DNA from: an uncultured Holophagales bacterium
Lineage (GTDB): Bacteria > Acidobacteriota > Thermoanaerobaculia > Multivoradales > UBA5704
DNA: 64,000 nucleotides
Assembly (NCBI GenBank): GCA_963842525.1
Contig: CAWJGT010000009.1
Coordinates: 1,184,001-1,248,000, forward strand
Direction of reading: 5' to 3'
A model generated the notes under the pieces. That model made no database searches. It was not told where the DNA came from and saw nothing but the letters and a program-made list of their open reading frames with translations. A program made the translations under genes and the position numbers. The stretch's first letter is position 1, and every line of letters begins with the position of its first letter. This document shows positions 2,321 to 57,444 of this stretch, piece after piece.

Positions 2321-2329
2321 GAGAGGTCC

Positions 2330-6297: not shown

Positions 6298-9200
6298 ATG
6301 TTGGAGACGAGCCGTCTGGAAGCTGTTGTGACGCCCTGGCGCCGCCCGGTGCGGAGCCGGGCCGTGCACGAGCTGATCGCGTTGCGCGCTGCGCGCGAAC
6401 CCGCGGCGCTGGCCGTGGCCTGCGGCGCGGAGAGCCTCACGTACGGTGCGCTGCGGCGTGGCGCCAGGCGGCTGGCCGGCCGGCTGAGAGCGCTGGGAGT
6501 CGGGCCCGAGGTGCCGGTGGGGCTCTACGTGGACCGCTCTCCCGCGGCCGTGGTGGGACTCCTGGGCATCCTGGAGGCCGGCGGCGTCTATGTCCCTCTG
6601 GACACTGCGCATCCCCCGGACCGGCTCGCCTTCCTCCTCGATGACGCCCGCCTCTCCGTGATCGTCACCCGGCGCGACTTGGCCGGCTCGCTGCCACCGT
6701 GCCGTGCCGCCCGCGTGGAGTTGGAGGAGCTGGCGGCCGAGGAGGGCCTGGAAGGTGAGGACCCGGATGGGGCTGACGATGCGGTGCCGGACACCCTGCT
6801 CGACAGCCTGGCCTACGTCATCTACACCTCGGGCTCGACGGGGAGGCCCAAGGGGACGGGCGTTTCGCACCGTGCCCTGGCCCGCCACTGCCTGCATCTC
6901 GCGCGGCGCTGGAGGCTCACCCCCGCGGACCGGGTGCTCCAGTTCTACGGCCTGAGCTTCGACCTGTCCATCGAGCAGATGCTTTCTCCGCTGGTGGCTG
7001 GCGCCGCGGTGATGCTGCGTGGCCCCGAGGGGTGGAGCGCGGGCGAATTCGCCGCGCGGGTCCGCGAGCTGGGGCTGACCATGGCGAGCCTGCCACCCGC
7101 GTACTTCGCCGAGGTCGCCCGCGAATGGGCCGGGCGGACGGAGCGCGGGCCGGGCGACCGGCTGCGGCTGGTGACCAGCGGCGGCGAGCGGATGGAGCCC
7201 GGTCGCGTGGCGCTCTGGCGGCGTGGCCCCTGGAGCGCGCTGCCGCTGGTCAACGCCTACGGCCCGACCGAGGCGACCATCACGGCCACTTTCTACCAAA
7301 TCCCCGCGAGCACCGGCGAGAGCGGACGGGTGCCCATCGGCCGGCCGCTCCCTGGGCGCCTCGCGCGGCTCCTGGACGGAGACGGCGGGGAAGCGGCGCC
7401 TGGCGAGGCGGGGGAAGCTCTGCCTGGGCGGCCTGGGGGTGGCGCGTGGCTACCTGGGACGGCCGGAGCGGACTGCCGAGAGCTTCGTCCCTGATCCCTT
7501 CTCGCTTCGGCCTGGCGCGCGGCTCTACCGCACCGGAGACCTGGCGCGGCGGCTGTCCGGAGGCGATCTCGACTTCCTGGGCCGCATCGACGACCAAGTC
7601 AAGATCCGCGGGTTTCGCGTCGAGCCGGGGGAGATCGAGACGGCGCTGCGGGCCCACCCCGGGGTGGGGGACGCGGCCGTGATCGCACGCGAGGATCGCC
7701 CCGGAGAGCGGCGGCTGATCGCCTATGTGGCCCCGGGCCGCTGCGGTCGCGCCCGGAGCGCGGGAGCTACGCCGGCATCTGGCTTCACGCCTCCCCGCCT
7801 ACATGGTGCCCTCGGCCTTCGTGACCCTGGCCGAGCTGCCGCGGACGCCGGGCGGCAAGCTGGACCGCCGGGCGCTGCCGGCGCCCGGCCGGCAGCGCCC
7901 CGAGATCGCCGCGCCGTACGCCGCGCCGCGCCGACCGCTGGAGGAGCGGCTGGCCGCGATGTGGGCCGAGCTGTTCGAGATCGAGCGCGTGGGCATCGAG
8001 GACCCGTTCGTGGAGCTGGGCGGCCATTCGCTGCTGGCCCTCCAGCTCGCCTCGCGGGTGCGCGACGCCTTGGGAGTGGAGCTGCCGCTGCACAATCCCT
8101 TCGCGGTGCCTACCATCGCCGAGCTGGCGCGGGCGATCGAGGAGAGGACCGCAGCCGGCGTTTCCGGTAGCCTGGCGCTGCGGCCCGCCCCTGTGCCGCG
8201 CGGCGGCGAAGCTCTACCCCTGACCTCGTCCCAGGAGCGGGTCTGGTTCCTCCACCGCATGGCGCCGGAGAGCCGGGCCTATCAGACCCAGTTCACCGTC
8301 CGCTGCCGCGGCGCTCTGGAGGTGCCGGCGCTGACCGGCGCGCTGGCGGAGATCGTGCGCCGGCACGAGATCTTCCGCACCACCTTCCCGGAGGCCGGAG
8401 GCCGGCCCGTGCAGGAGATCCATCCCACGGGTCCGTCCGCTCTGCCGTTGGCCGACCTGTCGCGGCTGCCGGAGCCCGTGCGGGAGGCCGAGGCCCGGCG
8501 GCTGGTGAGCGACGGCTTGCAGGAGCCCTTCGACCTGGAGCGGCTCCCTCTGGTCCGTTGGTCCCTGCTGCGCCTGGGCGCGGAGGACCACCTGCTGGCC
8601 GTGGTCGAGCACCACCTGGTGCATGACGGCTGGTCGAACAACCTGCTCCTGGGCGAAATGGTCGCGCTCTATCGCGCGGCAATGGCCGGCCTGCCGTCGC
8701 CGCTGCCCGAGCCGTCGCTCCAGCTCGCCGACTACGCGGTCTGGCAGCGGCGGTGGCTGGAGACGGACGCGGCGGCGGAGCAGCTCGCGTACTGGCAGCG
8801 CACTCTGGCCGGATGCCGTCCCCTGGAGCTGCCGGCAGACCGCCCGCGGCCGGCGGCGCCGTCCTACCGCGGCGGGGCGCCGCGCTTCGACCTGCCGGCG
8901 CCGCTCTGCCGGGAGCTGCGCGCCGTGGCACGGCGCCGGGAGGCGACCCTGTTCGCCGCCATGCTGGCGGCCTTCCAGGCGCTGCTCCACCGCTACACCG
9001 GCGACGTGGATCTGTGCGTTGGCTCGGGCGTGGCCAATCGGTCCCTGCGGGAGACCGAGGGGCTGATCGGCATGATCGTCAATAACGCGGTGCTGCGCAC
9101 CGACCTGTCGGGGGATCCGGCCTTCGAGGAGCTGCTGGGACGGGCCATGGCCGTGGCGGTCGGCGCCTATGCGCATCAGGATCTGCCGTTCGACCGGGTG

Positions 9201-12200
9201 GTCGAGGGGGTGCGCCCGCACCGCGACCGCAGCGTCCACCCGCTGTTCCAGGTGATGCTGAGCTTCCACGATTCGGCCATGCCGGAGCTGGACCTGCCGG
9301 GCGTCGAGGCGACGGTCGAGGGGCTGATTGCCAACGGCTCGGCCAAGTTCAACCTCAACGTGATCATGATCCCGCGGGCGGACCAGGCCCGCTCCTGGCA
9401 AGGCGGGGAGCGGCCGGAGTGGATCACGGTGGGCTGGGAATACAGCGCCGACCTCTTCGATCCGCCGACCATCGAGCGCATGACCGGCCACTTCCGCAAC
9501 CTGCTGGCAGCGGCGGTGGCGGACCCTGGACAGCGGCTCTCCGAGCTGTCGCTCCTGGGCGAGGCCGAGCGCCATCAACTGCTGGCTGAATGGCGAGAGA
9601 CCGAGGCTTTCCCCGGCGGCGCCCGTCTGGACGAGCTGTTCGCGCACAAGGCGGCCGGGACGCCGGACGCGGTGGCCGTGATCTGCGGACACGAGGCGCT
9701 GAGCTATGGCGAGCTTGCGCGCCGGGCTCGCGCGTTGGCCGCGGATCTCCGGTCGCTGGGGGTCGGCCCCGAGGTGCGGGTCGCCCTCTTCCTGGACCGC
9801 TCGTTGGAGATGGTGATGGCGGTTGTGGGCGTCCTCGCGGCTGGCGGTGCCTATGTGCCGCTCGATCCTGCGCTGCCGGCCGGGCGGCTTGCCTGGCTGC
9901 TCGCGGATGCGGCTCCGGCGGTGGTGGTTACCCGCGCTGACCTTGTGGATCGGCTGCCGGAGGTGCGGCCGGCGGTGGTGCTGGTGGCGGAGACCTCACC
10001 CCCTGTCCCCCTCTCCCATCTCCCTTCCACCCCCCGCCGGGAGAGGGGGAACGCATCCGGAGCCGCTATGACGGACCTCGCCAAACCGCCCCAGCCACGT
10101 TCCCCCTCTCCCGGGGATTGGGAGGGTGGTAGATGGGAGAGGGGGCCAGGGGGTGAGGACTCCGCCGCCTACGTCATCTACACCTCCGGCTCCACCGGCA
10201 CCCCCAAGGGAGTGGTGGTGTCCCACGACAACGTCGTGCGGCTGTTCGAGGCGTCCCAGGAGCGGTTCGGCTTCGGTACGGCCGATGTCTGGACCCTCTT
10301 CCACTCCTATGCTTTCGACTTTTCGGTGTGGGAGATCTGGGGAGCGCTCCTCTATGGCGGCCGTCTGGTGATTGTCCCGGAGCTGGCGAGCCGCTCTCCT
10401 GAGGAGCTGCTGCGGCTGCTGCGTGACGGAAGGCGTCACGGTCCTCAACCAGACGCCGTCGGCCTTCCGGCAGCTCGCCCGGGCGCGCGAGCTGGAGGAT
10501 GCGGGTGCAGCCGCCGCTCGCCCTGCGCTGGATCGTCTTCGGCGGCGAGGCGCTCGACGCGCGCACCCTGGCGCCCTGGCTGCGGGCCACGGGGCGGATC
10601 AGTCGGCCCTCGTCAACATGTACGGCATCACCGAGACCACGGTCCATGTCACCTGGCGGCGGATCGGGCCCGAAGACTTGATCGACGCCACTGGGAGCGC
10701 CGTCGGCCGTCCTCTCGCCGACCTGGAGGTGCTGCTCCTCGACCGGCAGGGAAAGCCGGTGCCGGTCGGCGTGCCGGGCGAGATCCACGTTGGCGGCGCC
10801 GGGCTCTCTCGCGGCTACCTGGGCCGGCCCGCGCTGACCGCCGAGCGGTTCGTGCCGCACCCCTGGTCGGCCGTGCCTGGGGCGCGCCTCTACCGCTCGG
10901 GCGACCTGGCGCGCTGGCGGCCCGACACCGACCTGGAGCACCGGGGCCGCATCGACCACCAGGTCAAGGTCCGCGGATTCCGCATCGAGCCGGGGGAAGT
11001 GGAGGCGGCGCTCGCGGCGCACCCCGCAGTCGCGGCGAGCGCCGTGGTGGCGCGCCCCGACGCAGCCGGCGATCACCGGCTCACGGCCTACTGTGGTGCC
11101 GGCCGGCGACGCGGCCCTGGTCGTTGCGGACCTTCGTGCCTTCCTGAAGGAGCGGCTGCCGGAGCACATGGTGCCTTCGGCCTTCGTCTCCCTAGATGCC
11201 CTGCCCTTGAACGCCAACGGCAAGCTGGACCGCGCCGTGCTGCCGGCACCGGACGGTGAACGTGCAGCACGGGAGATCCCCATGGCGCCGCGCACGTCCC
11301 TGGAGGAACGGCTGGCCGCGATCTGGGCCGAGGTGCTGGAGGTCGGGACCGTGGGCGCGCAGGACGACTTCTTCGAGCTGGGCGGGTATTCGCTCCTGGC
11401 CGTCCGCCTGCTGCACCGGGTGCGCGAGGAGCTTGGGGTCGAGGTCCCCCTCGGCCGGCTGTTCGATGACCCTACCGTGGCCGGCTTGGCCGCGGCCCTG
11501 GCCGAAGCGAGGCCGGTTGATCCCGGTACCGCCGGGGGAGGGGAAGCGTTCCCGCTCTCCTTTGCCCAGCGCCGCCTCTGGTTCCTCGACCAGCTTCAGC
11601 CCGGCCTGCCGGTCTACAACGTTGCACGGGCGGTGGGAGCTGCGGGAGTGCTGGATCCCGCGATGCTGGCCGCGGCGCTGGCCGAGATCGTCCGCCGCCA
11701 CCAGGTGCTGCGCACCGTCTTCTCGGCCGAGGGAGGAGCGGACGGCGAGCCCCTCCAGGTGGTGCTCCCTCCCCGGACGCCCGAGCTGCCGCAGGTCGAC
11801 CTGACGGCGCTTCCGGCTGGCGCGCGGCAGGCCGAGGAACGGCGCCTGGCCGCCACCGAGGCGGCGCGGCCCTTCGACCTTGCCCGCGGGCCGTTGTTGC
11901 GGACGGCGCTGGTACGCCTCGGCGCGGCGGATCACGTCCTTCTCCTCACCCTCCACCACGTGGTGGCCGATGCCTGGTCCATGACGATCCTCTTCCGCGA
12001 GTTGGGCGAGCTGATCACAGCCTTTGCGGCCGGCCGCCCGTCCCCGTTGCCGCCGCTGCCGGCCCAGTACGGCGACTTTGCCCGCGTCCAGCGCGAGCGG
12101 CTGGCCGGGGAGGCGCTTCAGGCCCAGCTCTCTTGGTGGCGCGCCCGCCTGGCCGGCGCTCCCGCACTGTTGGAGCTGCCCGCGGACCGGCCGCGGCCGG

Positions 12201-14752
12201 CGGTGCCGAGCGGGCGCGGCGGCACGGTGGCCTTCACCCTGCCGGACGGCATTGCCGGACGCCTGCGGGAGCTCGGCCGCTCGTCCCGGGCCAGCCTCTT
12301 CATGACCCTCCTGGCCGCCTATCAGGCGCTGCTCGCCCGCTTCACCGGCGCCGTGGACCTGGTGGCCGGGACCCCGGTGGCCAACCGCGAGCGCCCCGAG
12401 TGGGCGGACCTCATCGGCTTCTTCCTGAACACCCTGGCGCTGCGCGGCGACCTGTCCGGAGACCCGTCCTTCGGCGAGCTGTTGCGGCGGGTGCGGGATG
12501 GCGCGCTCGCCGCCTATGCCCATGCCGAGGTCCCGTTCGAGCGCTTGGTCGAGGAGCTGCAGCCGGAGCGCACGGCGGGCCACGAGCCGCTGTTCCAGAC
12601 GATGTTCATCCTGGACAGCACACCGCAGCGCCCGCTGGTCTTGCCCGGGCTCACCCTGACCCCCCGGGCTGTGCACAGCGGAACCGCCAAATTCGATCTG
12701 ATGCTGACGGTCGAGGACGCCGGTGAGGAGCTGCGCGGCCACGCCGAATATGCCCGTGACCTGTTCGAGGCGGCCACGGTGGAGCGGCTCGTGGGACACT
12801 GGCAGACCCTCCTCACGGCCATGGTCGAGTGTCCGGACCAGCGCCTCTCGGAGCTGCCGCTCCTCACCCATGAGGAGAGGCAACAGCTCCTGGTGGAATG
12901 GGGGACCGGGCCGAGACGCACCTGAAGGCGCCGGAGACGTCGTCTCCTGGTTCGAGGCGCAGGCGGCGCGGCAGCCGTTCGTTTCCGCTGTGATCGACGG
13001 CGACGAGCGCCTGAGTTATGCCGAGCTCGACCGCCGGTCCGGCCGCCTGGCCCGCCGCCTGCGCGAGTTGGGGGTGAGGACGGAGTCGCGGGTGGCCCTG
13101 CGCCTCGGGCGCGGCGTCGAGATGCCGGTGGCGGTGCTCGCCGTGCTCAAGGCGGGCGGCGTCTGTGTCCCCCTCGACCCGGCCTATCCGCCGGAGCGGA
13201 TTGCCCTGATGTTGGAGGATGCGCGGGCCGTGGCAGTGCTGACCCGTCGTGAGATGGAAGCGGAGGCGGCGGGGGGGATGCTTTCTCCATCCCCGGCCCG
13301 GCCAGCGGGGAGCCTGCTCTACGTCATCTACACCTCCGGCTCGACCGGCCGCCCCAAGGGGGTGGCGATGACCCACGATGCCATCGCCAACCTGGTCGCC
13401 TGGCAGCTCCGCGACCAGCCCTCAGGCCCGCCGGTGACCCTCCAGTTCGCCGCCCTCTCCTTCGACGTCTCGTTCCAGGAGATGTTTACTACCTGGTGCG
13501 CGGGCGGCACGCTGGTGCTCGTGCCCGAGGAGCTGCGCCGCGATGCGCCGGGCCTCCTCGACCGGGTGGCGGCCGCGGGCGTCGAGCGCCTGTTCCTGCC
13601 GGTGGCCGCCCTGGAGCAGCTTGCCGAGGCCGCGGCGGAGCGGGAGAGCCTGCCAGCGGGCCTGGCCCGGAGGCTGCGCGAGGTCATCACCGCTGGCGAG
13701 CAGCTCCGGGTCACGCCGCAGGTGGCGGCCTTCTTCGAGCGGCTGCCGGGCTGCGCCCTGGTCAACCACTATGGGCCGTCCGAGACCCATGTGGTCACCT
13801 CGCTGCGGCTCGACGGCCCGCCCGCGAGCTGGCCGGCCCTGCCGGCGATCGGCCGGCCGATCGACAACGCGCGGACCGTGGTCCTCGACGCCGCCCTCGG
13901 CCCGGTGCCGCCGGGCGTGGCCGGCGAGCTGTACCTCGGCGGCCGGGCCGTGGGCCGCGGCTACCTCGACCGCCCGGATGCCACGGCGGAGCGGTTCCTG
14001 CCCGATCCGTTCGCGGAAGAGCCCGGGGCGCGCCTCTACCGCAGCGGCGACCGTGCACGGATGCACGCCGGTGGGATCGTCGAGCACCTGGGCCGCACCG
14101 ACGACCAAGTAAAGCTGCGCGGGTTCCGCATCGAGCCCGGCGAGATCGAGGCCGCACTGGGGGCCCATCCCGCGGTGCGGGAAGCGGCCGTGGCGCTGCG
14201 CGACGGGCCGGAGCCAGGCTCGCGCCGGCTGGTGGCCTGGGTCGTGCCGCGCGAGGTGGCCGGGGACCTGGTGCCGGCGCTGCGAGTCCATCTCGCGGCC
14301 CGGCTGCCGGCCTGGATGGTCCCGAGCGCCTTCGAGATCCTGAACGCGCTGCCCCTGACCCCGAGCGGCAAGGTCGACCGCCGCGCCCTGCCTGCGCCGG
14401 GCGGCTCCGGTCCCTCGGCTCCCGCCCGGCCGCCGTGCACGCCGGTCGAGCGGGCGCTGGCGGCGATCTGGTGCGAGGTTCTGGGGCTCCCGGAGGTGGG
14501 AGCCGTAGGGATCAACGACGATTTCTTTGCCCTGGGCGGGCACTCGCTGCTCGCTACGCGGGTGCTCTCCCGGCTGCGCCGCTCCCTCGGGGTCGATCTG
14601 CCGCTCGCCGAGATGTTCTCCGGGCCGACGATCGCCCATCTGGCCGCGGCCGTGGAGCGGGCTCGCAGCGGTGCTCCATCCGGGCGGCCCTCGAAGATCA
14701 CCGCGCTGTCGCGCCAGGAACGGCGCCTGGTTCCGGTCCCGGAGGAGCCTGC

Positions 14753-14756
<4 letters not shown>
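6298..14756 (+). CDS. NRPS 1: A-T-C(ureido-type)-A-T-C-A-T, reconstructed across about 7 frameshifts
   Basis: Three YTSGSTG/YGxTE A domains, T domains GGHS/GGYS/GGHS, C motifs EHHLVHDG and HHVVADA. Stitched from ORFs 6298-7494, 7223-8170, 7725-11147, 10372-11259, 10499-10681, 11093-12925 and 12723-14756. Hand-read specificity codes: DLESTGAITK (basic?), DFWNVGMVHK (Thr), DVQFIAHVVK (Pro). Confidence 0.9.
9994..10158. repeat. Palindromic CCTCACCCC...GGGGTGAGG element, in frame inside A domain 2
   Basis: Nested inverted repeats over 165 bp. Adds a Pro/Gly-rich stretch just before AYVIYTSG. Confidence 0.85.
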
Positions 14757-27771
<13,015 letters not shown>

Positions 27772-27779
<8 letters not shown>

Positions 27780-30700
27780 GCAGACCCCTGGGGACCGTCT
27801 GGCCGGGCTCTCGCCCGAGCAGCGGGCTCGCCTCGTCGAAGCCCTGCGCCGCGAGCGCTTGCAGAAAGGCGGCTCAGCGATCCCGCCGCGGCCCGCGGGT
27901 CATCCGCCGCTGTCGTTGCCGCAGCAGCGCCTCTGGTTCCTGGAGAGGCTGGCGCCCGGCACCTGGACCAGCCATGTGGCGGTCGCGTGGCGCCTCGCCG
28001 GCCCTCTCGACGTCGCCGCCCTGGCGCGCGGTCTGAACGAGATCGAGAGCCGCCACGAAGCGCTGCGCACGACGTTCCACCTGGTGGACGAGCGCGCTGT
28101 CCAGATCGTTGCCCCGCCGCAGTCTCTCCCCCTGCCACGGATCGATCTCGACGGCCTCCCCTCGGCGCGACGGGAGGAGGAGGCCCGACGCCTGGCCGAC
28201 CGCGAGGCGCTCCGCGTTTTCGACCTCGCCCGTGGGCCGCTGTGGCGTCCTCTGGTCCTGCGGTTGGACGCGCACGAGCACGTCCTGCTGCTGACCTTCC
28301 ATCACCTGGTCTCCGACGGCTGGTCGATCGGGGTTCTGCTCTCCGAGCTGGCGGCGCTGTACGGCGCGTTCACCGCAGGCCGCCCTTCGCCGCTGCCGGA
28401 GCTGCCGATCCACTACGGCGACTTCGCCGCCTGGCAGCAGGGGCGGTGGGAGCGCGGCGACTTCGAGCCGCAGCTCGACGACTGGATCGAGCGGCTTGCC
28501 GGCTGTCCGCCCGTGCTTGCGCTTCCCACAGACCGGCCGCGCCCGCCGGTGCAGACGCAGCGCGCCGGCCTGATCTCCGTCTCGTTCCCTGCCGATCCCT
28601 GGCAGCGCTGCGAGGCGCTGGGCCGCAGGCTGGGCGCCACTCCCTTCATGGTCTGCCTGGCGGCGTATGCGGCCGTCCTTGGCCAGGTCAGCGGGCAGGA
28701 CGACCTGGCCGTGGGATCGCCGGTAGGCAGCCGGCAGCCGGCGGAGACCGAAAAGCTCATCGGTCTCTTCGTCAACACCCTGGTGCTGCGGGTGGACCTC
28801 AAGGGCGACCCGTCGTTCGCGGAGCTGCTGCGCCGTGTGCGCGCCGCGGTGCTCGCCGCCCAGGCGCATGGCGAGGTGCCTTTCGAAAAGCTGGTCGAGA
28901 CGTTGCGTCCACCGCGCGATCTCGCCTACGCGCCGCTCGTCCAGGTGATGCTCGCCTTCGAGGAGTCGGCGGGGGAGCGGCCGGCCCTCGCCGGCCTCAG
29001 TGCCGAGACCTTCCCCCTCGGCGCCGCGGTGGCGTTGTTCGACGTCACGCTGGGCCTGATCGCCATGGACGGAGGGCTCAAGGGGTGGTGGGACTACAAC
29101 GCCGACCTGTTCGATGCCGCCACCATCGAGCGCTGGGCGGCCGCCTGGGAGCGGCTGCTCCTTGCCGCGGCCGACGAGCCGGACCGCCGCCTCTCGGATC
29201 TGCCGTTCCTCTCCGCGGCCGAGCGGCGCCAGGCCGCGGACCGCCGGCCGCTGTCTGCGCTCACTGGAGCTTCGCCTGATGCAGTGGGAGCCGCGCTGCC
29301 GCCCCGCGACGACATCGAGCGCTCGATCGCGGCGATCTGGTGCGACGTGCTCGGCCGCGAAAAGGTAGGGATCGACGAGAGCTTCTTCGACGTTGGAGGC
29401 CATTCGCTGCTGCTGGTGCGGGTGCACGCCCGGCTCGTCGAGCAGTTCCCCGAGCTGGTCATGGTCGACCTCTTCAAGCACCCCACGGTGCGGCGCCTGG
29501 CGAGCTGCCTGCGCGCCGAGCCGGATGCGCCTGTGGCCCTTGTCGCGAAGACGCCGCCACCCCACGCCAAGGGGAGCGCCGTTGCCGTCATCGGTCTGGC
29601 CGGCCGTTTCCCCGGCGCTGGCGATATCGAGGCTTTCTGGCGCAACCTGAGCGGCGGCGTCGAGTCCATCTCGTTCTTCACCGCAGAGGAGCTCCTCGCC
29701 GAAGGGGTGAGCCCCGCCCTGGTCGCCGATCCTGGCTACGTGCGGGCCAACGGCGTGCTCGACGGAGCCGACCTGTTCGACGCGGATTTCTTCGGGATCG
29801 CGCCGCGCGAGGCGGAGGTGATGGACCCGCAACACCGTCTGCTGCTGGAGATCGCCTGGGAAGCCCTGGAGGACGCCGGCCGCGATCCAGCCCGCGCGGA
29901 CGGCCGCGTCGGCGTCTTTGCGGGGATCTCCGAGAGCAGCTACCTGCGCGTCCACGCGTCCGGCTCCGAGGCCGTGGCGTCCGTGGGTCCCTTCCAGGCG
30001 TCGATCGCCAACAGCGAGGCTTTCGCGGTCACCCGCGTCTCCTACAAGCTCGATCTGCGCGGTCCGAGCCTGCACGTGCAGACCGCCTGCTCGACCTCTC
30101 TGGTGGCGGTCCACCTCGCCTGCCGCAGCCTCCTGGCGGGCGAGTGCGACGTGGCGCTGGCCGGCGGCGCCGGCATCCTGTTCCCACAGCGCATCGGCTA
30201 TCGCTACCAGGAGCGCGGCATCGCGTCTCCGGACGGGCACTGCCGCGCCTTCGACGTCCGCGCCGCCGGGACCATCGGCGGCAACGGCGGCGGGCTCGTG
30301 GTCCTGAAGCGTCTCGCCGACGCCGTGGCGGATGGCGACCGCATCCGGGCGGTGATCCGCGGCACGGCCATCAACAACGACGGCGCCGGCAAGGTCGGCT
30401 TCACGGCGCCCGCCGTCGACGGCCAAGCCGAGGTGATCGCCGCGGCTCTGGCTGCCGCGGGCGCCGGCCCCGAGACGATCGGCCTGATCGAGGCCCACGG
30501 AAGCGGCACGCCGCTCGGCGACCCGATCGAGGTCGCGGCGCTCCACCAGGTCTTCGGCGTGGGTGCGGGCCCAGGCTCCTGCGCCCTTGGCTCGGTCAAG
30601 ACCAACATCGGCCACCTGGATGCCGCGGCCGGTGCCGCCGGGCTGATCAAGGCTGTGCTGGCGGTGGAGCGGGGCGTACGCCCGCCGAGCCTCCATTTCG

Positions 30701-33700
30701 AGAGCCCCAACCCGGCGATCGACTTTGCGGCCGGCCCTTTCTTCGTGCCGAAGGAGGCGACGCCCTGGCCGGCGGGTCCCGGTCCGCGCCGCGCCGGCGT
30801 CAGCTCGTTCGGTATGGGCGGGACCAACGCCCACGCAGTCATCGAAGAGGCGCCTCCGCAACCTCCTCAGCCCTCGCCACGCCCCTGGCAGCTCCTGGTG
30901 CTCTCGGCGCGCAGCGCCGCCGCCCTGGACGCGGCCACGGACCGGCTGGCGCAACACCTCGCGGCGCATCCGGACGTCGATCCGGCCGACGTCGCCTGGA
31001 CGCTCCAGACCGGCCGTAGAGCCTTCGCCCACCGCCGCATCCTGGTGGGCCGCGACGTGCCGGATCTGGCCGCGGCACTGGTCCCCCTCGACGCGGCCCG
31101 TGCGGTGACCGCCGTGGCCACGGAGACGGGGAAGCCCGTGGCGCTTCTGTTCCCCGGCCTGGGAGACGTGCGGCCGGGCATGTTCGGCGACCTCTGGCGC
31201 ACGGAGGCCGGTTTCCGCGCGGAGGTCGAGCGCTGTGTGGCGTTTCTTCCTGATGCGCTCGGGGAGCGCATTCGGGAGCTTTTCGCTGGAGAGGCCAAAC
31301 CAGGGACCGGGCTCGACCTGCGGCGGCTGGTCCGTCCCGGTGCGACGCAGGATGGCGACTGGTGGAGCCGCACCGAGGTGGCGCAGCCGGCGCTCTTCAT
31401 CGCCGAATACGCCCTGGCCCGGCTGTGGATGGATTGGGGCGTACCGGTGGCGGCGCTCCTCGGCTACAGCTTGGGCGAGTACGTGGCCGCCTGCCTGGCC
31501 GGAGTGCTGACCCTGGAGGAGGCGCTCCCCCTGGTGGTTGCGCGGGCGCGGCTTCTCGCCAGCTTGCCGGCCGGCGCCATGCTCGCCGTGCCGCTCTCCG
31601 AGGAGCGCACCCTGGCGCTGCCCGAGGTGGCCACGGGCGTGGTGGCCCTCGCCGCGATCAACGGCCCCGAGGTGTGCGTGCTCTCCGGCGATCCGGAAGC
31701 GATTACCGCCGTGGAGCACCGTCTGGCCGGCGAGGGGGTGCCCTGCCAGCGCCTCGCCGCCACCCAGGCGTTCCATGCGCCAGCCGTGGAAGCCGTCCGC
31801 GAGCCCCTCCTCGACCTGTTCCGCGCGGTGGACTGGAAAGCGCCCCGCATCCCCGTGCTCTCGGGTTTGACCGGCACCTGGCTCACTGCCGCGGAGGCAA
31901 CCAACCCGGAGCACTGGTACACCCAGACCCGCCGGACAGTGCGCCTAGGCGACAGCCTCGGAGAGCTGCTACGCGGTCCGGACTGCGTGTTGCTGGAGGT
32001 CGGGCCCGGGCAGGCGCTGTCGATCCTGGCCCGCCAGCACCCGGACCGCACGGCGGAGCGCCCGATCATCGCCTCCGCGCCGCACCGCCACGGCGGCGGG
32101 TCGGACGCCGCCTTCCTGCTCGAAGCCCTCGGCCGCCTCTGGCTCGCGGGCGTCGACGTGGATTGGAAGCGCTTCCATGCCGTCCAGCCGCGCCGCAAGG
32201 TCTCTTTGCCGACCTACCCCTTCGAGCGCCGGCGCTACTGGATCGACGTACGCCGCCCCGCGCCGCAGCCCGCCTCCCGGCCCGCGCTCGCCGACTGGTT
32301 CTACGCGCCTGCCTGGAAGCCGGCGCCGCGTCCTCGCACAGTCGAGACCGCCCCGCAGCGCTGGCTGGTGGTCGGGGACGTCGGCGGTCTGGGAGAGGCG
32401 CTCGCCGCGGAGCTGCGGCTGCGCGGGTACGAAGCCACAGTGCAGGCTGAGGGGTCGTCGCAGGCTGTCCTGCGGGAGCACCAGCCGGACGGCATTGCAT
32501 GGCTGTGCGAAACCGGATCCTGCGATCCTTCCCCGCATCCGGAGCAGGCCGAGTCCGCCTTGCTCGCCCTGTTCTCCCTGGTCCAGGCTCTGGGAGAGCA
32601 CCCCCTGGAGCTGGTCGTGGTGACGGCTGGTGCACAGGCGGTGACCGGCAGTGAGCGCCTGGCGCCCGAGCGGGCCGCTCTGGCCGCTGCGTGCCGGGTG
32701 ATCCCACGGGAGCACGCCCACGTGGCCTGCCGCAGCATCGACCTGCCGCTGGAGGAGAGCCCGTCCGCCAAACTCCTCGCCGACGAGCTCCTCGCCGGCC
32801 CGGCCGCCCCGGCCGTGGCCTGGCGCGGTGGACGCCGTTGGATCGAAGGCTTCGAGCAGGTCCGGTTGGAGCCTGCCGGAGCAGCCGATCTGCCACTCCG
32901 TGAGCGCGGCGTCTATCTCGTCACCGGCGGCCTGGGCGGCATCGGTCTGGCCCTCGCCGGATTCCTGGCACGGCAGGTCCGCGCCCGCCTCGTCCTCGTC
33001 GGCCGCACAGCGCCGCAGGATCATGCCTCGCGCCACATCACCTCGATGGAGGAGCTGGGAGCAGAGGTGCTGGCGCTGTCGGCCGATGTGGCAGACGCTG
33101 GCCGCATGCGGGAGGTGCTGGATACGGCGCGCCGACGCTTTGGCGAGATCGACGGCGTGATCCACTGTGCCGGTGTGCCCGGCGGCGGCCTGATCCAGCT
33201 CCGCACGCCCGACGCGGTGGCGAACGTCTTCGCGGCCAAGGTGCGCGGCGCGTTCGTCCTCGCCGAGCTGCTGTGCGGCCGTCGCCTCGATTTCCTGGCC
33301 CTCTGTTCATCGTTAACCGCGGTCCTCGGCGGCGTCGGACAAGCCGACTACTGCGCGGCCAATGCCGTGCTCGACGCCTTCGCGTCCTGGTACGCCGGGG
33401 AGACCGGCACACCGACCGTGTCGATCGGCTGGGACGCCTGGAAGGACACCGGCATGGCGCTCGCCGGGATGCCGGAGGACGAGGCCGCAGAGCTCCTCGC
33501 CGGAGAGCTGCGCGACAAGCTGGTCTCGGAGGAAGGGGTTGAGGCCTTCCGTCGCGTGCTGGCAGCCGGCCTGCCTCACGTCCTGGTCTCCACCGCGGAT
33601 CTCGACACCGCCTTGGCACGGGCGCAGGAGGTCGGCTTGGCGGAGGTGGCGGCGCAAGCCGGGCGGTCCACCCATCCGCGGCCGGCCCTCGCGCGTCCCT

Positions 33701-36700
33701 ATGTGGCGCCTCGCGACGAGACGGAGAAACGGCTCGCCGTACTCTGGCAGGAGGTGCTTGGCGTCGATCCGGTCGGCGTCCACGACGAGCTGACCGAGCT
33801 TGGCGGGCACTCGCTGCTCGCGCTCCAGCTCCTCTGGCGGATGCGCGGCTCCTTCGGTGTCGACCTGGCCCTCGGCGCCCTGTTCGAGGCGCCCACCGTG
33901 GCCACCATGGCCGCGATCCTCCGCGACGACGAGGCACCGCGGCCCGCGGCTGTCTCGCCGCTGGTGCCCCTCCAGACGACTGGTGGGGGAGACAAGCCGC
34001 CGCTCTTCCTTGTCCATCCGGCCGGCGGCGGCCTTTCGGGTTACCGCGATCTGGCACTGCGCCTGGGTGCAGACCGGCCGGTTTGGGGGCTCCAGTCCCC
34101 GGGTCTGATGGACGGCGGCGAGCCGCCGGCGGATCTGGAGACGATGGCCGCCCTCTACGTCGAGGCGGTACGGTCGGTCGCTCCGGCGGGGCCGTACCTT
34201 CTCGGCGCCTGGTCCATGGGCGGCCTCATCGCCTATGAGATGGCGCGGCAGCTCACAGCCTTGGGGGAGGAGGTGGCGCTCCTTGCCCTGATTGACGCCC
34301 ACGTGCCGGTCCCCGGCCTGGAAGACCCGGAGCCCGAGGATGACGCGGCATTGCTTGCCGATCTTTTCCGTCTCCCGCCCGTGGCCGGCTCCGTGGACGA
34401 CGTGCTCGCCACTGCCCGCCAGGCTGGCACGATCGGCGAAGACTTCGGGCCGGCCGAGGCCGGGCGTCTGCTCCACGTGTTCCGGGCCAATGTTGCGGCG
34501 GTCGAGGCCTACCGGCCGCGGCCCTGGCCTGGACGAGCGCTTCTCCTGCGCTGCCGCGAGGCGCTCCCCAGCGCGCCGGCCGAGCCCACCCTCGGCTGGG
34601 GAGCTCTGGCCACAGGAGGCGTCGAGGTCGTCTACGTGCCCGGCGGGCATGGCGACCTGGTCTTCGAGCCGCACGCGGCGGTGCTTGCCGAGCGGCTCCG
34701 TGCCTGCCTCGCCGGGCCCGCGGCTCTGCATCAGCTTTTCGAGCGCTGGGCGGACTGCACGCCGGACGCGGTGGCGGTGGTCCTCGGCGACGACCAGCTC
34801 TCCTGCGGCGAGCTGGAGCGCCGCGCCAACCGGCTCGCCCGGCATCTGCGTGCGGCCGGGGTCGGACCGGAGGTGCTGGTGGGGCTGGCTCTCGACCGCT
34901 CCCTCGACCTGGTCACGGTGGCGCTCGCGGTCCTCAAAGCCGGCGGCGCCTATCTGCCGCTCGATCTCACCTATCCGCCGGAACGCCTCGACTTCATGAT
35001 CCGCGACGCGGGCACGAAGCTCCTCCTGACGCGGAGCACCCTCAACGAGAGCCGGGAGGAGATCAGCCGCGAGAGCGCCGAGCGCCTGTCGGACGGGACC
35101 GGTCCGGACAACCTGGCTTATGTGATCTACACCTCCGGCTCGACCGGCCGGCCCAAGGGAGTCCAGGTGCCGCACCGAGGGCTCCTGAACGTGGCCGCAG
35201 TGCAGTTGGAGACCTTCGCGGCGACGCCCGACAGCCGGGTTGCGCAGTTCGCCTCCTGGAGCTTCGACGCCTCGGCTTTCGACCTCCTGATGGCCTGGGG
35301 AGCCGGTGCTGCCCTGTGCCTGGTGCCCGAAGAGGCGCGGGTCCCGGGACCGGCCCTGGTCGAGCTGCTGCGCCGGCATCGGATCACACATGCCACGCTC
35401 TCCCCTTCGGTGCTGGCCGGGCTGCCCTCCTCCGCCGAGCTGCCGGATCTCGCTGCGCTCGTCGTCGCCGGCGAAGCCTGTCCCCAGGCGGTGGTGGACC
35501 ACTGGGCGATCGGAGGGCGACGGTTCTGGAACGCCTATGGCCCGACCGAGGCCACGATCTGGGCGACCGTCGCGGAGTGCTCGATCGGCGAACGGCCGCC
35601 GATCGGCGCTCCCATCGACGGGGTCCGCGCTGCTGTGCTCGACGCCGGTTTCGAGCCGGCCGAAACCGGAGAGCTGTACCTCGGCGGCATCGGTGTGACC
35701 CGCGGCTATCTCGGCCGGCCCGCGCTGACCGCGGAGCGTTTCGTGCCGGATGCCTGGAGCGGCGAGCCGGGAGCGCGCCTCTACGCCACCGGTGATCTGG
35801 TGCGCCGCCGGCCGGACGACGCGCTCGACTTCCTGGGGCGGATCGACCACCAGGTGAAGATCCGCGGACTGCGCGTCGAGTTGGGAGAGATCGAATCGCT
35901 GCTCGACACCCTGCCTGGCGTGTCCGGCAGCGCCGTCCTCGCCGTGGACGAGCGCTTGGTGGCTTACATCGTCCCCGCCGGAGACTCCCCGACGCTCGCC
36001 GATTTGCGCAAGGGTCTGCGCGAGCGTCTGCCGGAGCACATGGTCCCCTCGACCTTTGTCGTCCTCGACGCCTGGCCCCTCACCCCCAGCGGCAAGGTGG
36101 ACCGGCCGGCTCTCCCTCGTCCAGAGCGCGGCCGCCGCGGCGATGCAGACTTGATCGCACCACGAACCCCGGAGGAAGAAGCGCTGGCAACGATCTGGCG
36201 CGACATCCTCGGCCTGGAAGAGCTCGGGGTCCGCGACGACCTTCTGGAGCTGGGCGCCCACTCGCTGGTCTTCGGCCGCTTCACCGCCCGGGTCCGCGAA
36301 GAGCTGGGCCGCGAGCTCCCCCTCCGCGAAATCTTCGACCATCCCACTGTGGCCGGCCTCGCCGCCTGTCTCCAGCGTGCCGCAGCGCTGCCCCCTCTGC
36401 CTCCGATCACCGCCATGCCTCGCGAAGGTCTGCTGCCGCTCTCCTTCGCCCAGGAGCGGATCTGGTTTCTGGAGCAGCTCTCGCCCGGCATCCTGGCCTA
36501 CAACGCCCAGGCCGAGCTGCGCTTCCGCGGGCCGCTCGACCCCGGCCTCTACGCTCGGGTGCTCGCCGAGGTGGTGCGGCGGCACGAGGTTCTGCGCACC
36601 GGGTTTCCGGAGGTGGACGGCCAGCCGGTCCAGGTGATCCACCCGCCGTATACGCCCGCCCTGCCCCTGGTCGATCTGATCGGCCTTCCCGCCGCCATAC

Positions 36701-39700
36701 GGGAGACCGAGACCGGGCGGCTGATCGGTGTCCTGATCCAACAGCCGTTCGACACGACCCGGCCGCCTCTCGTCCGCTGCACGCTGCTGCGCCTGAACGC
36801 GGAGGAGCACGCCCTCCTCCACATGGAGCACCACATCGTCCACGACGGCTGGTCGTTCGGCGTGTTCCTGGCCGAGATCGAAGCGCTCTACGAGGCGTTC
36901 GCTACCGGCCGCCCCTCGCCACTGCCGGAGCCGCCCATCCAGTACGCCGACTATGCCCTCTGGCAGCGGCAGTGGATGCGGGGCGAGGTTCTGGACCGGC
37001 ACCTTTCGTTCTGGCGGCAGCGGCTCGCGGGCAGCCCGCCGCTCCTCGAGCTGCCCACCGACCGGCCGCGCCCACGGGTCCAGCGTTTCCGCGGCGCCGG
37101 TCCCCGGATCACCCTGCCGCGCGACCTCTACACCGGCCTGCGCACCCTCGCGCGGCGCGAAGGGGTCACGCTCTACACGGTCATGCTGGCCGCGTTTGAC
37201 GCACTTCTCCAGCGCTACGCGGGCTGCGACGACGTCCTGGTCGGCGCCGGCGTGGCGAACCGGCGGGCCCGCCAGCTCGAAGGGATGATCGGCATGGTGG
37301 TCAACACCCTGGTACTGCGCACCTCGCTGGCCGGCGATCCGAGCTGGCGCGAGCTGCTGCGCCGGGTGCGCGACACGGTCGTCGAGGCGCGGGAATGGGA
37401 GGACATGCCGTTCGAGCAGCTCGTGCGCGAGCTGGCGCCCGGCCGCGACCTGGACCGCAACCCGCTGTTCCAGGTGATGTTCGGCTTTCACGACGCGGCC
37501 GTGCCGGACCTCGACTTCGCCGGCCTGCGCGGCACCGTGCGCGAGATCCACAACGGCTCGGCCAAGACCGACATCAACATCGTCGGAGTGCCTCGCGCCG
37601 AGCAGCGCGTCGGCCGAGTCGGGAGTGGGGGAGAGGACTTGGTTCTCATCTGGGAATACCGGACCGACCTCTTCGACGCGGCGACGATCGAGCGCATGAT
37701 CGGTCACTACCGCACCCTGCTGTCCGCCGCGCTCGCGGAGCCCGAGCGGCGCCTCTCGGAGCTTCCCCTCCTGGGAGACGAGGAGAGGCGCCAGGTGCTC
37801 GGTGCCTGGAGCGGCGCCGAGGCCGGGCATATTTGGCCGCGAGAGGCGTCGATCCCGGAGCTGTTCGCTGCCGTGGCCGCCGCGTCTCCCGATGCGGTGG
37901 CGATCGAATGCGGCACGGAATGCCTCACCTATGGCGAGCTCGACCGCCGGGGCCATCAGCTCGCCTGGCGCCTGCGTGCCCTGGGAGTCGGTCCGGATAC
38001 TGCCGTGGGCCTGGCGATCGAGCGTTCTCCGGAGCTGATCGTGGGCATGCTCGGCATCCTCCAGGCCGGCGGCTGCTATGTGCCGCTGGACCTGGTCTAC
38101 CCGGCCGAGCGCCTGGCCTGGATGGCGGCCGATGCGGGGCTGGATGTGGTGGTCACCTGCGGCGGCGCGCCGCTCGACCTGCACGTCGCCACCGTAGTCG
38201 ATCTCCGTGGCGAGGCCTGGGAAGCCCCTCACCCCCCTGGCCCCCCTCTCCCATCCGCCCTCCCTGCCTCCCGGGAGAGGGGGGAAGAGGCACTGCCAGA
38301 GAGCCTTAGTGCGGGGGCTCCCCTCTCCCGGAGGGCGGGAGGGCGGATGGGAGAGGGGTCGGGGGTGAGGGGCCAAGGCTTGCGCAGGACTTTCCAGACA
38401 TCCCCCGACAGCCTGGCCTATGTGATGTACACCTCCGGCTCGACCGGACAGCCCAAGGGGGTCGCGGTGACCCACCGCGGCGTGGTGCGGCTGGCCCGCG
38501 GCGGTGTCGGCGACGGCGACACCCTCCCCGGACCCGAGGAGGTACTGCTCCACATCGCTCCTCCGTCCTTCGACGCCTCGACCTTCGAGGTCTGGTGGAC
38601 GCTGCTCCACGGCGGCCGGCTCGCGGTCCTGCGCGAGCGCACCCCGTCCCTCGCCGAGCTTGGGGAGGCCGTCGTGCGGCACCGCGTGACCACCCTCCAC
38701 CTGACCGCCGGCCTCTTCCACCAAGTGGTCGATGAGCACCTGGAGGGTCTCCGCACCGTGCCGCAACTGCTCACCGGCGGCGACGTGGTCTCGGCGTCCC
38801 ATGTCCGCCGGGCCCTTGAAGCTCTTCCCGGCCGCCGGCTGGTCCACTGCTATGGGCCGACCGAGAACACCACCTTCACCTGCTGCCACGTCATGGCCGG
38901 ACCGGACGAGGCGCCCGATCCGCTGCCCATTGGCCGGCCGATTGCCGGCACCCGGGTCTACCTCCTGGACTCATGGCTGCGGCCGGTGCCCACGGGCGTC
39001 CCGGGCGAGCTGCTCACCGGCGGCGACGGCCTGGCTCGCGGCTATCTCGGCCGTCCGGGTCTGACCGCGGAGAGGTTCATCCCCGATCCCTTGACGCGAG
39101 AGCCCGGGGCGCGGCTCTACCGGACCGGCGACCTGGCGCGCTTCCGGCCGTCCGGCGCGATCGAGTTCCTGGGTCGGATCGACCGCCAGGTGAAGGTCCG
39201 CGGCTTCCGCATCGAGCCTGGAGAGGTCGAATCCGCGCTCGCCTCCTGCCCCGGGATCGGTGAGGCGGTCGTGGTGGTGCGCGACGACGCGGCCGAGAAG
39301 AGCCTGGTGGCGTATCTCACCCCGTCTTCCCCGCTGGCTGACGAGGCGGCCGGAACGGGAGCTCGCCGCCGCGGTCCGCGCCCTCCTCGCCGGGATGCTG
39401 CCCGACTACATGGTGCCCTCGGCCTTCATGGTCCTCCCGGTCCTGCCTCTCACGCCGAACGGCAAGGTGGACCGCGCGGCTCTGCCGGCTCTGGCTGCCC
39501 CGGCGGTAGACGCGTCCCGGGCGACCGCCTTCGTGCGCGCCCGCGGCCCCGTCGAGGAACGGCTGGCCGGACTCTGGGCTGAGGTGCTGGGTGTCGGCCG
39601 GGTGGGTATCCACGACAACTTCTTCCACCTGGGCGGCCATTCGCTCCTCGCCACCCGTCTGATCGCCCGGGTGCGCCGCGCCTTCGAGGTCGACCTGCCG

Positions 39701-40603
39701 GTCCATGCCGTCTTCGAAGGCGCCACGGTCGCGGGCATGGCGGCGCTGATCGCCGAGCGCCGCACCGGCGCGCCGGCACGGGAGGTCTCGCCGCTGATCA
39801 CCCTCCAGCCGTCAGGCGACCGGCCTCCGCTCTTCTTCCTTCACCCGGTCGGCGGCGGTGTTTCCAGTTATGCCTTCGTGTCCCGCCACCTGGCGCCGGA
39901 CCAGCCCTGCTTCGGCCTCCAGGCGCCCGGCCTGCTCGACGACCGTGAGCCGTTCGACCGGATCGAGCCCATGGCCGCCTTGTACGTGAAAGCCATCCGG
40001 GAGCGGTGGCCGGAGGGGCCCTATCTGCTCGCCGGCTGGTCGCTCGGCGGCTGGCTGGCCTTCGAGGTGGCCCAACAGCTTGCCGCCGGCGGAGGAGACG
40101 TGGCCCTCCTCGCCCTGCTCGACACGTCGAGGATCCGGCCCGAAGAGGTCGAGGAGGAGATGGACGACGCCACGCTGCTCGCCGATCTCTTCAACTTCGA
40201 CCTCGAGCGGACCGGCGGCGGGCCATGGACCCTCGAAGCCGTGATCGACGAGGCGAGGAGCACGGGCCAGGTGGAGGAGACCTTCGGGCTCGACCAGGCC
40301 CGCCGCCTGCTGCGGGTGCTCAAGAGCAACGCCAAAGCTCTCGACGCCTATGTGGCCCTGCCCTACCCGGGCCGCATCACGCTCCTGCGCTGCGACAAGT
40401 CCGCTGTGGCAGGGGCATCGGCCGATCCCACCCGAGGCTGGGGGAGCGTGGCGATTGGAGGGGTGGGAGGCGTGGACATCCGGCCCGTACCCGGCAGTCA
40501 CGCCTCGATCGTCCACGAGCCCCACGCGGGCCCGGTGGCCGAGACGTTGCGCCAGGCGGTCGGCGAGGCCCTGGCGGTGCGCCTGGGCGTCCTCTCGGTT
40601 TGA
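27772..40603 (+). CDS. Hybrid NRPS-PKS 3: C-T-KS-AT-KR-ACP-TE-A-T-C(ureido-type)-A-T-TE, one frameshift near 39350
   Basis: GTG overlaps the previous stop, with a GGAGG RBS. Motifs: [36 protein letters not shown] and YCAAN, TE GAWSMGG, two A domains (codes DAFTVAAIWK, Phe-like; DAFHLGCTFK, aliphatic), EHHIVHDG, terminal TE GWSLGG. Confidence 0.92.
38224..38373. repeat. Palindromic CCTCACCCC...GGGGTGAGG element, in frame inside the last A domain
   Basis: 150 bp, GCCCCTCACCCC...GGGGTGAGGGGC, shortly upstream of LAYVMYTSG. Confidence 0.85.
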
Positions 40604-41774: not shown

Positions 41775-42050
41775 ATGTGGGTCGAATGGGACGAGAGCAA
41801 GGCTGCCAGCAACGAACGCAAGCACGGAGTGACCTTTGAGGAAGCGGCGACCTGCTTCTACGACCCGCACCAGGTGGCCTTCTACGACCCGGACCACAGC
41901 GACGAGGAGGATCGGGACGTCCTGATCGCCCGCTCGGAAGGCGGCAGATTGCTGCTCGTCGTCTACACCCTCCGAAGCGAGGCGGTCCGGATCATCTCGG
42001 CTCGGCCGACGACGAAAAGGGAGACTCGGGACTATGAGAGAGGAATATGA
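41775..42050 (+). CDS. brnT: BrnT-family type II toxin (RNase)
   Basis: EWDESKAASNERKHGVTFEEA...RIISAR signature. Confidence 0.9.
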   Translation: MWVEWDESKAASNERKHGVTFEEAATCFYDPHQVAFYDPDHSDEEDRDVLIARSEGGRLLLVVYTLRSEAVRIISARPTTKRETRDYERGI

Positions 42051-42355
42051 TCTCGCCAAGCTGAAGGTCAAGCGGCGGGGGCCTCTGCCTGCCTTTCGTG
42101 ATGCCGAGGGGCGGCCGATGAAAGTCCGCATCACCATCACGCTGGATCAGGATCTGGTGGAGCATTTCAAGGCAGAGGCCGCGAAGCCAGGTGCTCTGCC
42201 TTACCAGACCCAGATCAACCAGGCTCTCCGTAAAGCATTGATGGACGATGAGCTGCGGCCGCAGCAGACCGAAGCCATCAAGGCGGCGCTGCTCAAGGAC
42301 CCGGACTTCTTGCGCGCTGTAGCCCGTCGGATCGAGGCCCAGGGGAGCTCCATAG
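42034..42355 (+). CDS. brnA: BrnA-family antitoxin
   Basis: MREEYD...KVRITITLDQDLVEHFK...YQTQINQALR, overlapping the toxin. End inferred from a TAG in the +1 frame at 42353; uncorrected the ORF runs into the repeat. Confidence 0.8.
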
Positions 42356-42420
42356 GCGACCTTTCCGGCCGGATCGGTCCCATCCCACCGCCGGAATTCC
42401 CCTTTCCCGGCCGTCTGGTC

Positions 42421-42850
42421 CCGCGGGACCGGCAAGGTTCCCCGCGGGGTCATGGACATTCCCCGCGGTGGCGCGCAGCGGTGCCGCGGGACCGGCGGTG
42501 TTCGCCGCGGGGCCATGGACACTGCCCGCGGTGGCGCGCAGCGGTGCCGCGGGACCGGCGGTGCTCGCCGCGGTGCCATGGACACTGCCCGCGGTGGCGC
42601 GCAGTGGTGCCGTGGGACCGGCAGTGTTCGCCGCGGTGCCATGGACACTGCCCGCGGTGGCGCGCAGTGGTGCCGCGGGACCGGCAGTGTTCGCCGCGGT
42701 GCCATGGACACTCGCCGCGGTGGCGCGCAGTGGTGCTGTGGGACCGGCGGTGTTCGCCGCGGTGCCATGGACACTCGCCGCGGTGGCGCACAGCGGTGCC
42801 GCGGGACCGGCAGTGTTCGCCGCGGTGCCATGGACACTGCCCGCGGTGGC
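42421..42850. repeat. Tandem repeat: about 7 x 63 bp, each 3 x 21 bp with a CCGCGG core, flanked by ~23-bp direct repeats
   Basis: CATGGAC at 42451, 42514, 42577...42829. CCGCGG every 21 bp. CCGCCGGAATTCCCC-(T/C)..CCCGGC at 42388 and 42854. Confidence 0.92.
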
Positions 42851-42898
42851 CCCCCGCCGGAATTCCCCCTCCCGGCGCTCTGTTATGCTCTGCCGCCT

Positions 42899-57323: not shown

Positions 57324-57444
57324 GGATTGATAGCCTAGCGGTTGCTGCCGGGTATGAACAATCAGACCCGCCGCGGTGTCCATAGCGCCGGGACCAGCGC
57401 CCTCCGGTTTTCCGCCGGCGGCGCAGCCGGCCCCTCCGGTCGCC

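Follow-up and report, generated by a model that had tools for sequence, protein, structure and literature searches.

The window analysed here is a 64,000-nt stretch from an uncultured Holophagales bacterium, positions 1184001-1248000 of contig C9 in the source genome G000 (9.95 Mb, 34 contigs, 67.5% G+C). All positions are given in window coordinates unless a contig is named. On the + strand, from about 6.3 to 40.6 kb, the window carries a hybrid cluster of nonribosomal peptide synthetase (NRPS) and polyketide synthase (PKS) genes. The cluster is about 34 kb long and its G+C content is 72-74.5%, compared to 64-69% in the flanks. Two units of the order adenylation-carrier-condensation-adenylation-carrier (A-T-C-A-T), each with the motif EHHXXHDG in its condensation domain, are found in it, one at the start and one behind an internal thioesterase (TE1) in the last synthetase gene. 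That gene, which ends in a second thioesterase (TE2) and appears to hold two assembly lines, is the subject of this report.

The last synthetase gene

The longest open reading frame (ORF) runs from 27727 to 39582 (+ strand, 3951 aa), and frame 1 is open from 27718 to 39579, ie there is no frame-1 stop across 11.6 kb. The Pfam matches in this ORF are, in order, Condensation, PP-binding, ketosynthase (KS), acyltransferase (AT), ketoreductase (KR), PP-binding, Thioesterase, AMP-binding, PP-binding, Condensation (aa 2901-3357) and AMP-binding. The database copy of the window's own protein, P0003, starts at the ATG at 27772. Because this ATG overlaps the stop codon of the upstream frame (27777-27779), 27772 was taken as a normal gene boundary. 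The features of the gene are listed below.

27772..39354, + strand: frame-1 part of the last synthetase gene, C-T(no A)-KS-AT-KR-ACP-TE1-A-T-C(ureido type)-A (Pfam, ORF map)
33679..33924, + strand: acyl carrier domain (ACP) of the last PKS module, GGHSL at 33799-33828 (frame map, motif scan)
34000..34716, + strand: TE1, internal type I thioesterase, with AWSMGG 34207-34224, LALIDAH 34282-34302 and PGGHGD 34639-34656 (Pfam PF00975)
34717..34725, + strand: TE1-A junction, three codons Pro-Ala-Ala, between the TE1 end that aligns with TE2 (RLRACL) and the A domain start LHQLFERW
34726..36105, + strand: first A domain of line 2 (loading type), A3 core 35131-35160, A10 core 36076-36105 (Pfam, motifs)
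36181..36372, + strand: T domain of the loading module, GAHSL (Pfam, motif scan)
36427..37797, + strand: ureido-type C domain, EHHIVHDG 36826-36849 (Pfam, motif scan)
37852..39475, + strand: second A domain of line 2, A3 38431-38460, A8 39172-39216, A10 39446-39475 (frame 1 to 39354, frame 2 from 39356)
38210..38403, no strand assigned: one copy of a palindromic repeat, about 170 nt long, that recurs across the genome; the insertion (roughly 190 nt) keeps the frame and separates the A2 core from the A3 core in the last A domain
39557..39751, + strand: last T domain, GGHSL 39629-39658 (frame 2; Pfam)
39827..40603, + strand: TE2 and stop codon, with GWSLGG 40034-40051, LALLDTS 40109-40129 and PGSHAS 40490-40507 (frame 2; Pfam)

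The initial annotation had described the order ACP-TE, A without C, T, C, A, T, TE in a single frame. The order itself agrees with the Pfam matches and motifs, and the motifs lie where they were reported (AWSMGG 34207-34224 with its preceding G at 34204, PGGHGD 34639-34656, EHHIVHDG 36826-36849). The uninterrupted frame to the second TE does not hold, as it changes at about 39355. Frame 1 makes sense to 39354 and frame 2 from 39356, which corresponds to a single additional base in the last A domain, at a point after the A8 core and before the A10 core. Frame 2 holds the rest of that domain as well as the last T (39557-39751) and TE2 (39827-40600). Since there is sense on both sides of a one-base offset, and the downstream T and TE2 retain all their core motifs, the break is read as an artefact. 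It is probably a one-base assembly error, and in the organism the gene is probably one ORF of about 4270 codons, from 27772 to 40603.

TE1 (aa 2092-2313) lies directly after a carrier domain and scores 106.1 bits against PF00975, for which the cut-off is 26.4. Its closest solved relatives are terminal NRPS thioesterases (4zxh, 1.4e-30; 7crn, 4.2e-29). The second T and second TE that had been claimed are also present, TE2 scoring 100.5 bits against the same cut-off. TE1 and TE2 share 48% identity. Of the 13 TE matches in the genome, each has the other as its best, the next-best being 44% for TE1 and 41% for TE2. Type I thioesterases use a Ser-Asp-His triad with a GxSxG nucleophile elbow. In TE2 the triad-type motifs are GWSLGG, LLDTS and GSH. 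In TE1 the Ser, Asp-like and His motifs are kept, with the nucleophile motif AxSxG (AWSMGG) rather than GxSxG, and TE1 may be atypical in this respect.

The A domain that follows (LHQLFERW, 34726) begins three residues after the end of TE1 that aligns with TE2, and there is no C domain between them, as had been proposed. In the junction region (about 34705-34745) there is no stop codon and no ATG, GTG or TTG triplet in any frame. A single indel hiding a normal gene end at the junction was ruled out because frames 2 and 3 remain open past it, their nearest stops being at 34996 and 35792. A chimeric join at a repeat was likewise rejected, as a repeat search around the junction gave no second copy of at least 90% identity and more than 85 nt within 3.5 kb. 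A junction lacking a stop, a start codon and a nearby repeat indicates that the fusion is probably real, and we consider it likely that the last gene is a true fusion of two assembly lines in the organism.

The C domain behind the loading A-T carries EHHIVHDG. According to PMC11212132, ureido-forming C domains are recognised by EHHXXHDG in place of XHHXXXDG, a signature that no other C domain in MIBiG has; they come after a loading A-T; and once the ureido has formed, the first residue has a free carboxylate, only the second staying on the carrier. A ureido-forming C domain thus needs a loading module of its own, because only the second residue remains carrier-bound, and a loading A-T does indeed follow TE1. 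Both EHHXXHDG domains of the cluster are the first C after a loading A-T (A-T-C-A-T, with no C before the first A), and both match the ureido-forming type by signature and position. The initial annotation had called the layout doubly ureido, and the earlier EHHLVHDG domain at about 8607-8630, besides EHHIVHDG, bears this out. In a search for homologues of the ureido-type domain the EHHXXHDG motif was seen in 2 of the 120 top matches, the rest being ordinary C domains, and no clade assignment follows from it. With a chain-ending TE, then a C-less loading A-T and then a ureido-type C in the same frame, canonical logic requires a second line to start after TE1, in agreement with the original proposal.

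One further peculiarity of the gene is its opening module (27907-29514), in which C is followed directly by T, before the KS. The carrier of this module would have to be loaded in trans, or else the A domain would have to have been lost.

The rest of the cluster and the quality of the assembly

The features upstream of the last gene, together with the positions of the frame changes, are as follows.

6298..27779, + strand: upstream part of line 1, A-T-C(EHHLVHDG)-A-T-C-A-T-C-A(FkbM-type methyltransferase)-T-KS-AT-T-aminotransferase-C-A-T, with several frame changes (Pfam on ORF pieces, tblastn frame map, motif scan)
8607..8630 (approximate), + strand: first ureido-type C signature, EHHLVHDG, in a C domain at about 8193-9587 (tblastn frame map, motif scan)
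Frame changes in the cluster: about 7410; about 7737; within 10388-10615; within 11004-11093; two near 20060-20190; about 23820; 39355

The remaining two C motifs found in the cluster are FHHLVSDG and THHIVSDG. A KS-AT-carrier-aminotransferase module (class III aminotransferase) is located at 18869-23350, and the A domain preceding it has an FkbM-type methyltransferase insert. In mycosubtilin/iturin-type and microcystin-type lines the KS-AT-carrier-aminotransferase arrangement leads to a beta-amino acid. Genes with likely tailoring functions precede the cluster (23-5088). They encode a radical SAM fragment at 23-1381, a sulfotransferase at 1403-2320 and a carbamoyltransferase at 3121-5088, with a minus-strand methyltransferase at 2330-3130. 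On the 3' side a BrnA-antitoxin-like match opens an over-long ORF (42034-43017), and a CHAT-domain protein is encoded at 57376-59253.

At least eight frame changes fall inside domains of the 34-kb cluster, as judged by the tblastn frame map and by motifs. A stop at 20078 was at first sight a real nonsense codon, and this was rejected because it lies inside a compensated double frameshift; between the two compensating shifts frame 1 reads GVSAFGVGGTNVHAVLEE..., a conserved KS end. Similar breaks are found throughout the genome. Within C, A and KS-AT homology, 84 junctions look like frameshifts. A scan of coding phase, for which 1279 long ORFs served as training set and in which same-strand phase switches without a nearby stop were counted, gave 430 candidates, 47 in NRPS/PKS genes (about 1 per 22 kb of coding-labelled sequence) and 383 outside them (about 1 per 15 kb); the scan is crude, having recovered 3 of the at least eight known shifts in the cluster, and its false-positive rate is uncalibrated. 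One of the three essential genes checked is affected: rpoB is split between two frames near C9:670.48-670.52 kb, and rpoC and dnaE are intact. Just past the shift, rpoB (G000:C9:670320-674532) has a Cys-rich insertion with four CxxC pairs (CKCG...CTNCG...CTECG...CDICG) that looks like a zinc ribbon. When frameshift sites were compared to controls no clear enrichment of homopolymers was seen. Elsewhere in the window, a coding-phase switch without a nearby stop at 61575, between the ORFs 60292-62220 and 61619-63571, suggests another indel; for the gene concerned, neither Pfam nor a homologue search in 12 relatives gave a match.

Because indels occur genome-wide, rpoB included, the frame breaks of the cluster are read as probable artefacts. 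The assembly is of poor quality; it probably contains uncorrected indels throughout the genome, with more in the cluster, and the break at 39355 and at least eight others are probably artefacts of this kind. With indels even in rpoB, any call of intact, split or fused that is based on reading frame in the NRPS genes of this genome needs a read-level check. This concerns a large part of the sequence: for about 1.19 Mb of the genome, NRPS/PKS homology is no more than 300 bp away, a single A-T query matched 234 A domains over their full length and a further 139 in part, and the NRPS genes amount to about 280 A domains.

The palindromic repeat in the last A domain has a further copy in the window at 21847-22002. 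The consensus of the 40 best copies folds to a hairpin of -149 kcal/mol and is free of stops in four of its six frames. Among 145 distinct long copies (at least 130 nt), 98 lie at the borders of coding-labelled stretches or in the gaps that separate them, 25 fall in NRPS/PKS regions, and 22 interrupt other coding-labelled stretches without a change of frame from one side to the other. The repeat occupies the same A2-A3 loop in six A domains, the last A domain of the cluster included, and is also found in C domains and KS-AT linkers. In-frame palindromic elements are known from Rickettsia, and the repeat resembles them.

Related proteins and characterised systems

In 40 relatives the matches to the region were to A domains only and started at query residue 231 or later. 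A locus with TE and A side by side (L051) was rejected as a spanning orthologue since it consists of two genes in different frames, the TE-ending ORF stopping at 10708. When representative proteins were searched with TE1 and the first part of the A domain, proteins rich in A domains made up most of the result, and among the 150 matches listed P0003 was the only one to span the junction in one stretch. The best A-domain relative (G019, 56%) was likewise rejected as an orthologue; it has a C domain in place of TE1 and an ordinary LHHIVGDG C domain in place of the ureido-type one. In this same-family genome a locus at G019:C40:24000-43000 has KS-AT-KR-ACP followed by C-A-T-C-A-T, and it is colinear with the KS-AT-KR-ACP and A-T-C-A parts at about 48-51% identity. 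As a loose hint, this may mean that TE1 replaced a C domain of an ancestral continuous line. Open frames in the relatives reach 15714 aa.

When TE1 and the start of the A domain were searched as one region, the best alignment covered 99-100% of the query in six of the 120 proteins listed (P0161, P0193, P0202, P0203, P0230 and P0265). Their layouts were derived from Pfam (four proteins) and from motif scans. Five of them belong to a family of about 4480 aa (P0193, P0202, P0203, P0230 and P0265, with P0197 similar) and have C-A-T-TE-A-T-C-A-T-C-x-T-TE. P0161 has C-A-T-TE-A-T-TE-A-T-TE. Both layouts share with the window protein a TE followed by a loading A-T in one polypeptide, and in the 4480-aa family the second, C-terminal TE resembles the internal one, as here. 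They differ in having Cys-type thioesterases (GGYCFGG) and TE-A linkers of about 40-60 residues and in lacking both an EHHXXHDG C domain and a PKS part; across the junction their identity to the window protein is only 35-39%. From these layouts, two lines in one polypeptide appear to be a recurring, uncharacterised design.

Internal thioesterases have also been described in the literature. AlpA2 has one just before an NRPS module, and others are cited for the burkholderic acid PKS (PMC6113372). PMC5707447 gives FmoA5, of the 4-methyloxazoline NRPS for JBIR-34/35, as C-T-TE-TE-A-T, ie an internal TE followed by A-T, as here; its TEs are in tandem, one being like a type II TE, and the protein as described there has neither a ureido C domain nor a second terminal TE. 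Bimodular ureido starters, as in SnaA (A-T-C-A-T) and in the opening modules of the synthetases for anabaenopeptin, bulbiferamide, chitinimide and pseudovibriamide, share the A-T-C-A-T unit with EHHXXHDG, in which, according to PMC11212132, the loading A domain supplies the outer residue of the ureido pair and the next A domain the inner one. In the present cluster, unlike those, the unit occurs twice; its second copy follows an internal TE and has a further TE directly at its own end.

Further close parallels are found in clusters that have two TE-ended lines. In pseudotetraivprolide biosynthesis PipB-TE forms an ester onto a PipC-bound intermediate and PipC-TE releases it; all full-length products were lost when PipB-TE was deleted or its Ser mutated (PMC12828459). 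The FR900359 core receives a side chain by transesterification, for which FrsA-TE is responsible; FrsA-TE and FrsG-TE are each other's closest relatives, and the same source cites salinamide, rimosamide and necroxime as additional examples (PMC7794379). The idea in the initial annotation that a TE might join two products thus has published precedents in PipB-TE, FrsA-TE and Sln9-TE. The pseudovibriamide (ppp), chitinimide (chm) and pseudotetraivprolide (pip) clusters each have two TE-ended lines, one ending KS-KR-ACP-TE, as here, and in the ppp and chm products a ureido start is made by the first C after a loading A-T, again as here. They differ in that the lines are on separate proteins and there is one ureido C; in the window there are two, and the lines are fused in cis. 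Their acceptor line is a conserved Val/Ile-Pro-malonate NRPS-PKS, AT-less in ppp and rimosamide, whereas the acceptor-like line here is long, has a cis-AT and includes the A-less C-T module. The FR900359 synthetase (FrsA, C-A-T-TE, plus FrsD-G) has in common with the window a short side-chain line with its own TE and two TEs that are closest relatives. FrsA differs in being monomodular and separate and in having a starter C domain; it lacks both ureido chemistry and a PKS part.

The layout had been thought to be without precedent, and this was not borne out; T-TE-A is found in FmoA5 and in the database proteins, and two-line clusters with two TEs are known. In the literature searched no cluster with two ureido-type C domains and no metabolite with two ureido (chain-reversal) units turned up. 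What looks new is the fusion in cis together with the second ureido-type C domain.

Possible working of the two lines

The best explanation as a whole, to which we give a probability of about 40%, is that the two lines are fused and cooperate, by analogy with detoxin/rimosamide-like systems and FR900359. Line 1 would start with the upstream A-T-C-A-T unit, whose C domain is of the ureido type, and would end with C-T-KS-AT-KR-ACP-TE1, serving as the acceptor line. Line 2 (A-T-C-A-T-TE2), starting three residues after TE1, would build a ureido dipeptide and act as a short donor line. TE2 would then carry the ureido-dipeptidyl unit to a hydroxyl of chain 1, most plausibly the KR-made beta-hydroxyl on the ACP, and TE1 would release a conjugate with two ureido groups. 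The activity of both thioesterases, the joining of the lines and the choice of TE for that step are points that we infer. Cooperation is supported by TE1 and TE2 being mutual best matches in the genome, as was reported for FrsA-TE and FrsG-TE. In its most specific form, a megasynthase of about 4270 residues with two complete lines in cis, in which one TE grafts the dipeptide onto a KR-derived hydroxyl and its paralogue releases a branched bis-ureido product, the proposal is doubtful.

Several points weigh against this explanation. The TE1-A fusion is a singleton, with no spanning match in 40 relatives, 52 species-representative loci and 6 metagenome loci, and its link of three residues compares to about 40-60 in the other TE-A fusions seen. 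Ala at the elbow position of TE1 was found in 0 of 173 nucleophile motifs from 113 homologous proteins (101 G..S, 72 G..C). There are more frame changes per kb in the cluster than the genome average, which also fits decay, and the repeat adds about 55-60 residues to the last A domain. The cluster has the two TE-ended lines, TE1 and TE2, that are one criterion for the detoxin/rimosamide-like group, but the Val/Ile-Pro-malonate line (A-T-C-A-T-KS-KR-ACP-TE) that is the signature of this group was not found in it; the TE1-ended line reads ...C-A-T followed by C-T(no A)-KS-AT-KR-ACP-TE. A nucleophile on line 2 or on chain 1 is postulated. Substrate codes taken at the presumed motif positions, DAFSVAAIWK in the first line-2 A domain and DAFGLGC(TF)K in the other, fit aromatic and aliphatic residues only loosely, and the Phe-like and aliphatic substrates of the initial annotation are tentative. 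Finally, the junction and the 39355 break were judged on the internal evidence of the assembly.

Three other explanations have to be set against this. Neighbouring synthetase genes may have been joined neutrally and still make two independent products, TE1 hydrolysing or cyclising chain 1 and TE2 freeing the ureido dipeptide, which could be protease-inhibitor-like. Each line is formally complete, with a loading A-T and its own type I TE, loss of the boundary between a TE gene and an adjacent A gene such as exist separately in L051 would give the fused layout, and a three-residue link resembles an accident more than an evolved linker. Against this, the lines are joined in the characterised two-TE-line clusters described in PMC12828459 and PMC7794379, TE1 and TE2 are each other's closest relatives in the genome, and a fusion that fixes 1:1 stoichiometry suggests that the lines work together. 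Independent products are the main rival, which we regard as somewhat unlikely. It is also conceivable, though improbable, that TE1 does not end a chain at all but acts in cis as an editing or otherwise non-canonical domain, chain 1 being released by other means. Internal thioesterases of unclear or editing function have been reported (AlpA2, burkholderic acid PKS, FmoA5), and the unusual AxSxG motif would agree with such a role. The best solved relatives of TE1 are, however, terminal NRPS thioesterases, the alignments to its best database relatives cover the TE part of multimodular NRPSs with a PF00975 domain, and with no C after TE1 to pass chain 1 on, a release step is needed exactly there. 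Such a role for TE1 is therefore the least expected of those considered.

The remaining explanation is that the cluster is decaying and non-functional, the frame changes, the repeat insertion, the A-less module, AxSxG and the linker-less fusion all being real lesions. The high density of in-domain frame changes (at least eight in 34 kb), the repeat in the last A domain, the TE1 elbow, the C-T module without an A domain, and the lack of an orthologue in the relatives, species representatives and metagenome contigs searched would all be accounted for in this way. Yet like frame changes occur in rpoB, and in non-NRPS genes at similar or higher density, which points to assembly error; conserved motifs can still be read past each shift, including the compensated pair in the KS; the same repeat is in the same A2-A3 loop of five other A domains, and in C domains and KS-AT linkers elsewhere; and frame 1 has no stop over 11.6 kb. 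We consider decay, the next rival after independent products, unlikely.

If cooperation of the two fused lines is correct, the gene would be a covalently fused, ureido-doubled version of the logic seen in detoxin/rimosamide and FR900359. Provided that the fusion and both thioesterases are functional, a donor and an acceptor line would be naturally tied together in one protein. A functional system of this kind would bear on how TE-mediated coupling is organised, and on the engineering of branched peptide-polyketide hybrids.

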